From Fimbriimonadales bacterium (GTDB taxonomy: Bacteria; Armatimonadota; Fimbriimonadia; Fimbriimonadales; ATM1), in the NCBI GenBank assembly GCA_041744215.1, contig JBGTLG010000033.1, positions 32,001-96,000 of the forward strand: 64,000 nt of DNA, read 5' to 3'. The stretch's first letter is position 1. The number at the start of each line of letters is the position of its first letter. The notes under the pieces are model-generated. The model was not told where the DNA came from and searched no databases. It saw only the letters and a program-made list of their open reading frames with translations. Below are positions 1 to 59,755 of the stretch, one piece after another. The translations under genes and the position numbers were made by a program.

Positions 1-748
1 CGGTGCGATTGCCTTCCGGATTGATCAGAGCGTCGTCGAATCTTGCGGATCCAGCAATGTGCTTTGCATGGCCGTCCGCGAAGATCATCGTGCCCCCAGT
101 TGTGTGCCACCTGCGATAGAAGTTCCAGGGAGGATCGCAATCATAACCGTATCGGTCACAAGCGTCCTGCGTGTTTCTTCGATCGAATGCCGCGAACATT
201 TCGTCACGAATGATACGAGTGTCAGAAGGCGCCACAAACTCAGATTCCTTGACGATCTTAGTGTAGCCATAGGGAACGTTGTTCGCGCTCGATTCATCTT
301 CGACGACAGAAAACGCGCACTTGGTAAAGCGATAGCTGCTCCCATACGCTTCCCAATAGCTGCGCGCCCCCGGCACGTCTACTTCCGTGTATGGACCACC
401 TTGATCCAACGGGCACTTGAAGATCGGCATGAGCCGCGTGAGTGGCTGCCCGCCAACGGAAGTAACTGAACCGCCCACGTAGGGCGCGAGTTGCGTTTCG
501 ACCCCCTTATGTCCCGGCTGCCTAGCATGTGGATTCGACATGTATGCATAGAAGATCGGGAACGTCCCGTCGTAGTCACCCAGGTAGAGCATCAGCGCTG
601 TACCGACTTGCCTAGCGTTCGACAGGCACGCGGTTCGCTTGGCGGCCTCCTTCGCCTGCGAGAAAACAGGAAAGAGAATGGCCGCGAGGATCGCGATTAT
701 CGCGATCACGACGAGAAGTTCGATCAGCGTAAACCCTCGTTTTTTCAT
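1..748 (-). CDS. Prepilin-type N-terminal cleavage/methylation domain protein (DUF1559 / H-X9-DG family); 3' end runs off the window
   Basis: Not in the ORF track; read manually. ATG at 748 with GGAGG RBS, translating [49 protein letters not shown]...; C-terminal MIFADGHAK motif near position 60-90. Confidence 0.93.
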
Positions 749-760
749 TTCATTTGCCTC

Positions 761-800
761 CAAAAGCCAAGGGTCGCTCCGCGGTTGCGGAACGACCCTT
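761..800 (-). terminator. Expression-platform hairpin of the TPP riboswitch (terminator-like)
   Basis: AAGGGTCGTTCCGC-AACC-GCGGAGCGACCCTT stem (769-800) followed by GGCTTTT and then the RBS. Confidence 0.7.
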
Positions 801-813
801 GAGTCTCGGTGCT

Positions 814-904
814 CCGCTTTCCTACGCCGGTTTGAACCGGATCAGGTTCCGAGGGTCTTCCGGTCAAGCCGGAACTCTCAGCCCACACAGGGCTCCCCTA
901 GCGG
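814..904 (-). ncRNA. TPP (thiamine pyrophosphate) riboswitch aptamer
   Basis: Minus strand reads CCGCT-AGGGGAGCCC...GGGCTGAGAG...ACCCTCGGAACCTGATCCGGTTCAAACCGGCGTAGGAA-AGCGG. It contains the TPP hallmarks GGGG, CUGAGA, ACCC, GAACCUGAUC and GCGUAGG, with P1 formed by CCGCT/AGCGG. Confidence 0.93.
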
Positions 905-1040
905 GAACGGCGCCTTGGCGCTTAGGTCTATTCTACTCCTATTCAGAAGGCGGGGTTCGGGAAGGTCGCTCACACAAGCCGGTCGAGCAGGCATTAATAC
1001 GGGTTTTCGTCAGCCACCTGCCGAAAGACGGGCTCGGCTG

Positions 1041-1069
1041 TTGACGCTGCCGCGAAAGTTTGATACAGT
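1041..1069 (+). promoter_or_regulatory. Putative sigma70 promoter for the PEP-CTERM gene
   Basis: TTGACG-17 bp-TACAGT. Confidence 0.5.
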
Positions 1070-1140
1070 AAGGGCTCAATGCTGAGGGGACCATGGTTTC
1101 CAAGGTGTTGTGGATCGAAGAGGAAGGAGACTGAAAAGCA

Positions 1141-1851
1141 ATGAGCACAAGAATGATTGGCCTTTGCGCGCTAAGCGCTGGGTCGTTGGTAATCAGTGCG
1201 CACGCTGCGCTGATCGAGGACTTTGAACACGGCAACATCGGGCTGTACACCCAGGCGGGCGGCAGCCTCAGCAATGCATCGATTGTCGCGCACGCTGCGC
1301 ATTCGGGCAATGCAGGCGTCGAATTCGCGCTGGGGAGTGGGCCACAGTGGTATTACCGTACAGACATTGGTACAGCTCCAGGAGCTAACCCGTACTACGG
1401 GTACGTCCGATTCACCGAAACGCTAACGAACAAGCGTGTTTACCTTGGCGTCGGGGCGGCGGCGACCGGGACCTACTCGGTTGTCGCGGCACCGAACACG
1501 GGCCAGCTACTACTTCAGCAAAACACGCCCTACAACACATTCACGACAATTGGAACGGTAGCCGCGACCTATGCTCCAAATACTTGGTATAGGATCGAAC
1601 TCCTATGGGAAGCTAGTGGCAACATGACCGGCTTCCTTTATGACGAGACGGGAACGAACCTGCTCGCGCAAACGAACACCGCTGCGACCGGGTTCACGAC
1701 GCCGGGCGGGATCGCTTTCCGAGGGTTCGCCTTGACCGCTGGCACGGGGCTATCCCAGCTGGACGACATCGGGGTCGTTCCAGAGCCGGCATCAATTCTG
1801 TTGGTCGGCGCTGGCTTGGCTCTCCTTGCCAGGCGACGACGCGCCCGCTAA
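1141..1851 (+). CDS. PEP-CTERM sorting domain surface protein (beta-sandwich/lectin-like body)
   Basis: Signal peptide; C-terminal VPEPASILLVGAGLALLARRRRAR; AAGGAG RBS. Confidence 0.92.
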   Translation: MSTRMIGLCALSAGSLVISAHAALIEDFEHGNIGLYTQAGGSLSNASIVAHAAHSGNAGVEFALGSGPQWYYRTDIGTAPGANPYYGYVRFTETLTNKRVYLGVGAAATGTYSVVAAPNTGQLLLQQNTPYNTFTTIGTVAATYAPNTWYRIELLWEASGNMTGFLYDETGTNLLAQTNTAATGFTTPGGIAFRGFALTAGTGLSQLDDIGVVPEPASILLVGAGLALLARRRRAR

Positions 1852-16185: not shown

Positions 16186-16262
16186 TGGTAGCGGAGGTCG
16201 GACTCGAACCGACGACCCTGCGGGTATGAACCGCATGCTCTAACCAGCTGAGCTACTCCGCC
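16186..16262 (-). tRNA. tRNA-Met (CAT), elongator-type
   Basis: GGCGGAGTAGCTCAGCTGGTTAGAGCATGCGGTTCATACCCGCAGGGTCGTCGGTTCGAGTCCGACCTCCGCTACCA; cloverleaf with encoded CCA. Confidence 0.95.
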
Positions 16263-31432: not shown

Positions 31433-33115
31433 ATGGGCGAGGGTTGGATCAACCAGCTTCACTATGGCGATAACCTCGAAGTCATGCGGGAGAAGATCCC
31501 GGATGAAGTCGCGGACCTCGTCTACCTCGACCCGCCGTTTAACTCACAGCGGAACTACAACGTCTTATTCAAACAGGTGAAGGGCGATCCGGCTCCGGCG
31601 CAGATTATGGCGTTCGAGGACACTTGGCGATGGAGCCCTATGCTCTACGACGAGTTTATGGAAGACGGGCGCAACGCCAAACTCTTCGACCTCGTGCAGA
31701 GCCTCTACCAAATCTTGGGCGATTCCGAGATGATGGCGTATGTCGTCATGATGGCGCCGCGATTGCTCGAACTTCATCGCAAGCTCAAACCAACGGGCTC
31801 GCTTTACCTGCATTGCGATCCGGTCGCAAGCCACTATCTGAAGATTCTGCTCGACGTTATCTTCGAGCCTCAAAACTTTCGGAATGAGATTACATGGAAG
31901 CGACAGAGCGCCCACAGCGACGCGAAACTCAAGTTTCCTGATGTTGCGGACGTCATCTTGTTCTATTCGAAGAGCAGCCAGACGAAATTCGCGCCCGTGT
32001 TTACTGATCACAATCCCGAATATATAGCAGGCTTCTATCGCTATGACGACAATGATGGGAGAGGCTCTTATCGGAAGGACAACATCGCGAGTCCTAATCC
32101 GCGCCCTAACCTAATGTATGAGTGGAAAGGATTTCCGCATCCGGCTAAGGGGTGGCGGTTCGAGAGAAACACCATGGAAAAGCTGGACTCGGAGGGAAGA
32201 ATCTGGTATCCGAGGCATCCAGACGGATCACCCGACACGTCGAAGCGGCCCCAGGTTAAGCGATACCTTGCAGAGATGAAAGGCTCCATCGTTACGAACG
32301 TCTGGACAGACATAAGCCCCGTTCAATATGCGAGTAGGGAGAGTCGCGGGTATCCAACGCAGAAGCCCCTTGCGTTACTGGAGCGGATCGTCGCTGCGAG
32401 CAGCAAGGAGGGCGACGTCGTACTCGATCCGTTTTGCGGCTGCGGTACTGCCGTGGTCGCTGCCGAGCGAATGGGAAGGCGCTGGATCGGCATCGACGTT
32501 ACGTACCTTGCCATTTCCGAAATCGTCTACCGCCTGACCACAGAAACGACTGCGGTTCGCGACAAGGATTACGAACTGCGCGGGACGCCTAAGGACGAGA
32601 TGTCCGCGCTCAAGTTCTTTGAGGAAACCGCGCCGTACAATCACAAACCCTTCGAAATGTGGGCAGTGCATCTTGTCGAAGGCGAACCCCAGGAAAAGAA
32701 GGGCGGCGACAAGGGCATCGACGGTCGTATTCCGTTTCGAGGCATAGATAAGCAACTTCGCTGGGGCATGATACAGGTGAAAGGCGGTAGCAGCGGGCCA
32801 GCACACGTGCGCGACTTCGCGCGCGTCCTCGACCGCGAGAAGGCGCTGTTGGGGCTGTTTATCTGCTTCCGGATCACGAAGGAGATGCGGGAAGAGGCAG
32901 AAAAGATGGGCTATGCGGCATCCCTCGGCGGCAGCCGCAAGGTGCCCCGGTTGCAGATTCTTACGATCAAGGACCTGCTCGAAAAGAAGAAGGAGTTCGT
33001 AATCCCGGAGGGCTACCGATTGCCGAGGTCGAAGGGTGTTGGGAAGGGGATGAGGGCCAACCAAATCGCCATCAGCTATGAAGAGGCGGAGGTCGCCGGC
33101 ACCGATGAGAACTGA
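31433..33115 (+). CDS. N6A/N4C DNA methyltransferase (beta class) with C-terminal Mrr-like restriction endonuclease domain
   Basis: YLDPPF catalytic motif precedes YPTQKP...[11 protein letters not shown] motif; C-terminal GGDKGIDG...IQVKGG PD-(D/E/Q)xK motif. Confidence 0.88.
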
Positions 33116-58870: not shown

Positions 58871-58975
58871 TGCGTTCTCCTTCCCTATTGGGGTTATCGA
58901 TTATACAACGCCGAAGGGGCTTTCGTTGCGGCAGTGAGTCTGAAGATTCGCCCCCCGCAACCGAAAATTATGGCT

Positions 58976-59755
58976 ATGCACCCGCAGATTTCTCCTCGCC
59001 GGGCCGGATTCACGCTCGTCGAACTCCTGGTCGTCATTGCCATTATTGCCATTGTCTCCGCCATCCTGTTTCCCGTGTTTCAACAAGCTAAAGCTGCCGC
59101 CAAGAAGTCTTCTTGTCTTAGCAATGTGCGGCAACTTGGGACGGCTGTTCAACTTTATGTTCAAGATTACGAGGCTTTGCCTCTCCACGAGCAACTCGAT
59201 GGCACAGCGTGGGGACTATCGCTTATAGAATCGACGTGGTCGGATTCAATCTTCCCTTACGTTTCGAAAACGGAGCTCTTTGTTTGCCCAATCGTCGATC
59301 AATCAATCACACGAAAACCGTGGCTGCACGTCATAAACAAAGCGTACGGCGGCTATGGATACAATTACCAGTATCTCGGCAACGGTTTAGTCCCGACATC
59401 AGTAACTGAGTCTGCCATTTCCTCGCCGACGGAAACAGTTTTGATTGCCGACACCAGAGGCGTCGTCGATGCACAGAACACGCCGAGAGCCGGTGTCTAC
59501 GTCGTCGACCCGCCGATCACCGCAGCGGCCGGGTCTGGCACGACCAGCGGCTTCTATGGAGTCGGCAGCGAGTGCGGTCCGGGAGTCGACGGCTGTAGAT
59601 CGAAACCCGACATTCGACACCTTCAATTCGCAATTGTTGCGTTCGTTGATACTCATACAAAAGGGATGAAGTTGTCTACGCTCGACGACTATGATCGTGA
59701 CGGCGTCGCAGACAACGGATATTGGAATGGCCACGCCGATCCGAACATCCGCTAA
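58976..59755 (+). CDS. Prepilin-type N-terminal cleavage/methylation domain protein (DUF1559 / H-X9-DG-like)
   Basis: [24 protein letters not shown]......FVDTHTK. Confidence 0.9.
   Translation: MHPQISPRRAGFTLVELLVVIAIIAIVSAILFPVFQQAKAAAKKSSCLSNVRQLGTAVQLYVQDYEALPLHEQLDGTAWGLSLIESTWSDSIFPYVSKTELFVCPIVDQSITRKPWLHVINKAYGGYGYNYQYLGNGLVPTSVTESAISSPTETVLIADTRGVVDAQNTPRAGVYVVDPPITAAAGSGTTSGFYGVGSECGPGVDGCRSKPDIRHLQFAIVAFVDTHTKGMKLSTLDDYDRDGVADNGYWNGHADPNIR

Follow-up and report, generated by a model that had tools for sequence, protein, structure and literature searches.

The DNA analysed here, referred to below as the window, is a 64,000-nucleotide stretch of a contig from a Fimbriimonadales bacterium of the phylum Armatimonadota (G000:C33:32001-96000). 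At its left edge, on the reverse strand, a thiamine pyrophosphate (TPP) riboswitch precedes a gene for a type IV prepilin-like protein, and this gene and its regulation are the subject of the present analysis. The last 15 codons and the stop of the pilin-like gene lie outside the window, at G000:C33:31954-32000; the gene runs for 44 nt past the window edge and then reaches its stop codon (31954-31956), 47 nt in all. The features at the locus, in window coordinates, are the following.

1..748, - strand: type IV prepilin-like protein with a clade-specific head, 264 aa (PF07963, TIGR02532)
670..748, - strand: prepilin leader MKKRG, cleavage/methylation motif with Glu at +5, and hydrophobic N-terminal half of helix alpha-1
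757..761, - strand: ribosome-binding site GGAGG, 8 nt ahead of the start codon (read from the sequence)
760..809, - strand: expression-platform hairpin (minimum-free-energy fold)
802..909, - strand: TPP riboswitch aptamer, full length (RF00059, Rfam model match)
910..1140, no strand: intergenic region from the riboswitch to a divergent open reading frame (ORF) with a PEP-CTERM-like tail (promoter scan)

The Rfam covariance model RF00059 matches the reverse strand at window positions 909..802 with 73.6 bits against a gathering cut-off of 54.3 (E 1.3e-12). The alignment is full length (model positions 1-105 of 105), and both aptamer cores (CUGAGA; ACCUGAUC...GGCG) are in place with posterior probabilities at maximum. 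This bears out the TPP aptamer that an earlier note on this DNA had proposed, with its 5' end at 909, so that the noted end at 904 falls 5 nt short. No other TPP riboswitch match was found in the genome. Few markers indicate a gene of vitamin B1 metabolism as reliably as a TPP riboswitch does. The riboswitch itself is an ordinary member of RF00059, and the novelty lies in the protein that it regulates.

The arrangement described in the earlier note, with riboswitch and hairpin directly upstream of the ribosome-binding site of a type IV prepilin-like gene, was read from the sequence again and holds. Downstream of the aptamer is a core stem of 14 bp (800-787 paired with 782-769, loop 786-783), which in the minimum-free-energy fold grows to 809-760, with its outer pairs covering the first two G of GGAGG. 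The 176-nt leader, composed of aptamer and hairpin, folds with -84.7 kcal/mol (z -4.8), and 0 of 200 shuffles were equally stable. On the 3' side of the stem follow four U (765-762), GGAGG (761-757) and the ATG at 748. The heptamer that forms the 3' strand of P1 (817-811) is repeated in the 3' arm of the hairpin (782-776), so that either copy can pair with 793-787. This alternative pairing would correspond to the usual logic of an OFF switch, and binding of TPP is predicted to repress the pilin-like gene. The hairpin had been described as terminator-like, of which only a part stands: a very stable hairpin exists, but it touches the ribosome-binding site, and a simple terminator scan did not call it because its U-run has only four bases.

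A promoter scan gave one sigma-70-like site, on the + strand at 1041-1069, and none on the riboswitch strand. The divergent ORF (window 1141-1851, + strand) encodes a 236-aa secreted protein with a PEP-CTERM-like sorting tail (VPEP...RRRRAR). A search of sequencing runs for this stretch listed no RNA run that contains it, and three DNA runs of a single study that do, one of which may be its source.

Conservation of the gene and its riboswitch was followed in 61 genomes of the order, comprising the genome under study and 60 relatives in five families, f1-f5 (one unpublished genome, G011, is counted among the 61 and was not used in the alignments). Of the 61, 39 have full-length orthologs (52-88% identity, E<=3e-66), and a clear score gap separates these from paralog-level matches near 1e-27. 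They occur in the genome under study and 16 of its 19 relatives in f1, in 3/3 genomes of f2 and 19/19 of f3, and in 0/1 of f4 and 0/18 of f5. At least one TPP aptamer was found in 56 of the 61 genomes, nearly every genome having exactly one. By comparison of coordinates, an aptamer over the cut-off lies directly upstream of the pilin-like gene and on the same strand in every ortholog-bearing genome (39/39). Rfam scans of 29 ortholog loci gave 27 matches, and the two unmatched loci (in G020 and G024) are tandem gene copies with the aptamer ahead of the first copy. A tRNA gene stands just upstream of the TPP riboswitch in many f1 relatives and not in the genome under study, where the window has a tRNA gene at 16189-16262 (- strand, 67.5 bits).

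The survey was extended to the phylum by running a profile of the 29 orthologs over 301 Armatimonadota genomes. Orthologs at E<=1e-72 were found in 110 of these, including all sampled members of several families, with paralog-level matches near 1e-43. At 35 further loci, 15 from the profile search and 20 chosen as representatives of nine families, an aptamer over the cut-off lies directly upstream in 34, the remaining one scoring 52.6 bits. Taking order and phylum together, the aptamer exceeds the Rfam cut-off at 73 of 74 ortholog loci (73 genomes), which answers in the affirmative the question whether orthologs keep the riboswitch. Judged by eye, the expression platforms differ among orthologs, in that the hairpin is followed by a U-run in some and pairs with GGAGG in others, and the aptamer is kept throughout. 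This divergence speaks for selection on the regulated output and not on any one sequence. Two of the contigs with clear orthologs (L041 and L042) come from records titled Methyloversatilis and Archangium, and are probably mislabelled or mis-binned assemblies.

Within the order, the pilin-like gene and thiamine synthesis are complementary: the single riboswitch belongs to the former in one set of genomes and to the latter in another. thiC is present in 16 of the 61 genomes (15 of f5, and G003) and in 0 of the 39 that bear an ortholog, and the aptamer precedes thiC in 16/16 cases. Genuine thiG was found in 18/18 genomes of f5 and in no other of the 61. Genuine thiE was likewise found in 18/18 of f5, and also on one small contig of G019 (73% complete, 4% contamination), the single ortholog-bearing genome with thiE. 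Thiamine pyrophosphokinase (TPK) is encoded in all 39 ortholog-bearing genomes, and no genuine match to it was found in f5. An odd partial pathway occurs in G003 (f1, genus g2; L137), where the TPP riboswitch is followed by thiC and a TPK is present, with no genuine thiE or thiG found.

The genome under study (2.68 Mb in 42 contigs, 93% complete) has the same economy. Pfam and NCBIfam searches of this genome did not find thiC, genuine thiE, genuine thiG or a ThiN-type synthase, nor a genuine thiD, for which there was only a 27-bit partial match in a 569-aa frame; thiL was not over the cut-off, and PnuT and ThiT were not found. TPK is present with both of its Pfam domains, and its stop overlaps the start of a 462-aa symporter of the sodium:solute symporter family (SSF; PF00474, 3e-8).

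G000:C40:38481-40508 (locus L154:4479-6508), - strand: TPK and SSF symporter, overlapping, no riboswitch

Since thiamine synthesis genes were not found and TPK is present, the cell appears to need intact thiamine from outside. The earlier note had suggested thiamine or a precursor as the ligand; the link to thiamine acquisition stands, while a precursor such as hydroxymethylpyrimidine (HMP) or hydroxyethylthiazole (HET) is unlikely, given that no genuine thiD, thiE, thiG or ThiN-type synthase was found. HMP was considered as the cargo and dropped on the same grounds and for the constant presence of TPK. Intact thiamine is the likely cargo.

The gene that follows the pilin-like gene is not conserved within the order and is often convergent, so the riboswitch there controls essentially one gene. 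Exceptions are the tandem copies, in genus g10, and possibly a two-helix ORF of 171-173 aa located 53 nt downstream, which is common to the genus of the studied organism only. The genes beyond the window edge were inspected as had been advised, and no thi operon stands behind the pilin-like gene here. A recent insertion of the gene ahead of a thi operon, also raised in the earlier note, is rejected for the order, where no downstream gene is conserved and TPK and the symporter are encoded at another site. Other families do show a physical linkage, of the gene with the trapping kinase and with two different thiamine-type carriers. The gene orders at the 20 loci chosen from nine families are as follows.

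9/20: pilin-like gene, TPK, SSF symporter
3/20: pilin-like gene and TPK alone (one at a contig end)
1/20: two pilin-like genes, SSF symporter
2/20: pilin-like gene, PF09819 (YkoE-type) permease
5/20: pilin-like gene alone, then unrelated genes

Where the operon is split, as in the genome under study, the riboswitch stays with the pilin-like gene. A homolog of the SSF symporter occurs in 29 of the 61 genomes of the order (the genome under study, 17/19 of its f1 relatives, 3/3 of f2, 8/19 of f3 and 0/18 of f5), and adjoins TPK in 25 of the 29. Because of the conservation of the riboswitch, the complementarity with thiC, thiE and thiG, the co-occurrence with TPK, and the operons with TPK and transporters, we consider it very probable that the pilin-like protein has a role of some kind in thiamine acquisition.

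The protein itself has the N-terminus of a type IV pilin, matching PF07963 N_methyl (1.1e-9) and TIGR02532 (1.9e-9). The class III signal is complete, with a short basic leader, F at +1, Glu at +5 and a hydrophobic helix; at -1 this protein has G, where most orthologs have A. F6, T7, L8 and E10 (Glu +5) are invariant in 29/29 and 34/34 aligned sequences. The +5 Glu is needed by pilins for fibre assembly, and a genome search gave one match for a prepilin peptidase (Peptidase_A24) and three for secretins. An AlphaFold model built on the alignment of 29 orthologs (predicted local distance difference test score 91, predicted template-modelling score 0.85) consists of a helix of 51 residues and a small sheet into which long loops are inserted. 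An exhaustive structural search listed pilins and pseudopilins first, with PilA4 at Z 4.9 (root-mean-square deviation 3.9 A over 122 residues) and weaker matches to EpsG (Z 3.9) and ComP (chain 5hz7, Z 3.5). Foldseek gave no match in the PDB at E<=0.001 (best E 0.22 or more), and in a profile search of PDB sequences the pilin helix alpha-1 alone matches. No two-lobed solute-binding-protein chain is among the listed structural matches, which does not thereby rule out families that are not listed. The predicted fold is thus best described as a pilin with an enlarged clade-specific head and no recognisable solute-binding-protein fold. Family models of known thiamine transport components (ThiT, PnuT, YkoE-type and TonB-dependent OMthi) did not match the pilin-like protein.

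The assignment to the DUF1559/H-X9-DG family, made in the earlier note, holds in part. FADGHAK and the literal motif (H215...D225-G226) are present, but the match to PF07596 (DUF1559) is marginal (23.6 vs 23.3 bits) and limited to the N-terminal part, at residues 31-76 and profile positions 2-46 of 268. An NCBIfam search at E<=10 returned nothing beyond the pilin-type N-terminal models, and no model for the H-X9-DG motif, for which a dedicated NCBIfam entry presumably exists. Among the orthologs D225 does not vary and G226 hardly does, whereas several of them have G, S or D at position 215 instead of His.

For the head (residues 60-264), a comparison with the genome's 19 other prepilin-motif ORFs showed no similarity (best E 8e-4). 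The clusters nearest to the head in the Protein Atlas are unnamed or carry the label 'type II secretion system protein family' (Verrucomicrobiota, Lentisphaerota), and are leads only. In an alignment of 34 sequences from more than ten families, the invariant residues are Y55, P64, H80, G82, E84, Y90, D115, G117, Y131, G136, S138, R181, W214, G218 and D225, which fall in the motifs PIFxAY, HxGxE, YGSSY and WHxxGGxxxFADGHA. Richness in conserved aromatic and acidic residues would suit a cationic aromatic ligand. In the reading that we propose, the product of the gene captures thiamine specifically and has a type IV pilin as its scaffold; we assign this reading a probability of roughly 55%.

Periplasmic phosphatases serve NAD and nicotinamide mononucleotide (NMN) uptake by a job comparable to one that may be envisaged here, in which the protein is an envelope enzyme turning thiamine vitamers (thiamine monophosphate, TPP, damaged forms) into the substrate of the carrier. 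Six of the invariant residues are polar (H80, E84, D115, S138, R181 and D225) and could form a catalytic or metal site, although the scaffold is that of a pilin and the His of the H-X9-DG motif varies among orthologs. The C-terminal ..DGH.. motif is common to paralogs with unrelated heads, which hints at a common chemistry, and operons with TPK and carriers are as expected for a salvage enzyme. Searches of the protein found neither a hydrolase nor any other enzyme family or fold, which counts as weak evidence against an enzymatic role. On balance we regard such a role as improbable.

The pilin features are shared with a different explanation, that of an adhesin or motility pilin induced by thiamine starvation, which would bring the cell toward thiamine-producing neighbours without handling thiamine. 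The invariant Glu +5 on a pilin scaffold, the secretins and prepilin peptidase of the genome, and the solitary position of the gene in the order all accord with it, but the operons with TPK and thiamine-type carriers elsewhere fit a direct role in uptake, and a second riboswitch-controlled paralog argues for ligand-specific proteins over general adhesion. We find little reason to expect an adhesin here.

This paralog lies on another contig. An AdoCbl-II (adenosylcobalamin) riboswitch (RF01689; 48.7 bits against a cut-off of 36.5) at G000:C15:75375-75453 stands 106 nt ahead of a 259-aa pilin-like H-X9-DG protein (G000:C15:75560-76336), so the check whether other paralogs carry other riboswitches turned up a case. 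Similarity between the two riboswitch-controlled proteins covers the first 72 residues only. By coordinates, of the 32 relatives with this paralog 19 have the AdoCbl-II riboswitch ahead of it; the match to the model exceeds the cut-off in nine of these and is weaker in the rest. The pair (G000:C15:75375-76336; locus L155:1535-2499) comes just after a tRNA gene. The contig of the window carries two more prepilin-like DUF1559 paralogs, at window 58970-59752 (+) and at G000:C33:29643-30413 (-), the latter 1.5 kb downstream of the riboswitch-controlled gene; the window scan gave no riboswitch over the cut-off for either.

That the riboswitch is regulatory baggage, kept on a protein without a thiamine function such as a generic envelope protein whose cost is saved at high TPP, is hardly credible in view of the pairing at 73 of 74 loci in many families with divergent expression platforms, the strict complementarity with thiC, and the position of the gene as the sole TPP-controlled one found in a thiamine auxotroph.

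Several observations weigh against thiamine capture by the pilin-like protein. The structural matches to pilin folds are weak, all with Z below 5, and the U-run after the leader hairpin is short, so that termination and translational control are both compatible with it. In the genome under study the pilin-like gene adjoins no transporter, and the TPK-SSF pair has no riboswitch. A homolog of the symporter is absent at E<=1e-20 from 11 of the 19 ortholog-bearing f3 genomes, and the partner carrier is therefore not fixed. Two genomes have TPK and neither thiC nor an ortholog: G008 (91% complete), in which no aptamer was found, and G022, in which the aptamer precedes a multi-pass membrane protein. 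The pilin-like protein is thus not the sole solution. The gene absences, finally, depend on Pfam and NCBIfam searches of metagenome-assembled genomes.

A few TPP riboswitches in the order precede other genes. In G022 (f4; L153:2273-3223) the gene behind the sole riboswitch encodes a multi-pass membrane protein of 227 aa that matches no Pfam family and may be a further thiamine carrier not described so far. Genus g17 has a second TPP riboswitch ahead of genes for proteins of 216-222 aa (L150:3155-4706 in G028, L151:460-1281 in G038). In place of a prepilin signal these proteins begin with three membrane helices, after which comes a stretch sharing 37% identity with residues 2-64 of the pilin-like protein; by their sequences they look like a non-pilin-anchored relative under a TPP switch. 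Extra TPP riboswitches were also found before a peptidase S10-like protein (L149:631-2240; G014:C20, a possibly foreign contig of 7,985 bp in a bin that is 78% complete) and before a 231-aa protein without a Pfam match (L152:490-1481, G052:C18).

If the pilin-like protein captures thiamine, a scheme such as the following may be considered. At low cellular TPP, the anti-hairpin pairing would form and the gene would be expressed. Its product would be processed by the prepilin peptidase and would come to lie outside the inner membrane, either as a subunit of a fibre of the type IV pilus or type II secretion kind or tethered by its N-terminal helix. There the enlarged head would bind thiamine and feed an inner-membrane carrier, and TPK would trap the imported vitamin as TPP. 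The carrier in the genome under study would likely be the SSF symporter that is translationally coupled to TPK, with another carrier serving where the symporter is missing. Of these steps, direct binding of thiamine by the head has slightly better than even odds in our estimate, and a hand-over of thiamine to the symporter is conjectured. That the protein acts at the outer membrane or through it, as a component of a fibre, is doubtful. A fibre-borne receptor and a membrane-anchored periplasmic receptor may both fit, and we express no preference between them.

A broader and rather unlikely extension is that H-X9-DG/DUF1559 proteins act as exchangeable tips or subunits, each for its own ligand, of a retractile type IV pilus or a type II secretion-like fibre, which carries scarce nutrients through a secretin across the outer membrane in a TonB-independent form of uptake. 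The TPP-controlled paralog would then carry thiamine, and the one behind the AdoCbl riboswitch cobalamin. TonB-dependent receptor plug domains are rare in the order, with 0-2 per genome and none in 28 of the 61. If true, this extension would account for the expansion of the family in Armatimonadota and in Planctomycetota-Verrucomicrobiota lineages with few TonB-dependent receptors.

We know of no demonstrated function for the DUF1559 family (PF07596, 'SBP_bac_10'). A literature search outside subscription journals returned no link of a TPP riboswitch or of thiamine to prepilin-like or DUF1559 proteins, and none of the DUF1559 papers found concerns thiamine by its title and abstract. What is new here is a pilin-type component in a thiamine salvage module under a TPP riboswitch. 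For one clade of a very large family whose function is not known, this supplies a specific ligand to test, with the B12-riboswitch paralog as a built-in specificity control. Should thiamine capture prove true, the outer uptake step would be filled in diderms that are almost without TonB-dependent receptors, and the uses of the pilin scaffold would extend from DNA and adhesion to small-molecule nutrients. It would also allow a better reading of vitamin auxotrophy and cross-feeding in the Armatimonadota of hot springs, soil and wastewater, which are known mostly from metagenomes.

Among known systems, the DUF1559/H-X9-DG prepilin-like proteins of Planctomycetota, Verrucomicrobiota and Armatimonadota have the ..F-A-D-G-H-A-K.. 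motif in common with the pilin-like protein, and paralogs of the same genome are 60-75% identical to it over the N-terminal 65 residues; its head is clade-specific. A riboswitch that directly controls a type IV pilin gene has a precedent in pilA1 of Clostridioides difficile, which lies behind a cyclic di-GMP (c-di-GMP) riboswitch. The effector there is a signalling nucleotide for motility and adhesion, whereas here it is a coenzyme and the context is vitamin salvage. A pilin-fold subunit that binds its cargo is known in the minor pilin ComP of Neisseria, part of a DNA-uptake pilus. Both proteins have the class III signal and Glu +5, and the cargo-binding head of ComP would have its counterpart in the enlarged head described here; however, the cargo of ComP is DNA, it is without riboswitch control, and no sequence similarity extends past helix alpha-1.

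On the side of vitamin transport, the TPK-adjacent PF00474 symporter resembles ThiV, a sodium:solute symporter of SAR11 behind a TPP riboswitch, which in the part of the account available is taken to carry HMP (PMC11452348). The likeness, that of an SSF carrier tied to vitamin B1 acquisition, is at the family level. The cargo here is likely thiamine rather than HMP because thiD and thiE were not found, and the pilin-like protein has no counterpart in the ThiV system as far as that part describes it (PMC11452348).

A similar module is OMthi-pnuT-tnr3, the TPP-riboswitch thiamine uptake operon of Bacteroidetes, whose first gene encodes a TonB-dependent outer-membrane transporter according to the portion of the source at hand (PMC5613172). 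On the same partial account, both are TPP-controlled uptake and trapping modules made of an outer component, an inner-membrane carrier and a thiamine pyrophosphokinase, often in a single operon and sometimes split with the riboswitch retained (PMC5613172). They differ in that the first gene here is pilin-like and not a TonB-dependent barrel, that the carrier is SSF or YkoE-like and not PnuT, and that in the genome under study the riboswitch is on the pilin-like gene only. The Armatimonadota order of pilin-like gene, TPK and SSF symporter nevertheless parallels that of OMthi, PnuT and Tnr3 (PMC5613172), and as OMthi comes first in its operon, this mirrored order favours a role in the outer step of uptake for the pilin-like protein.

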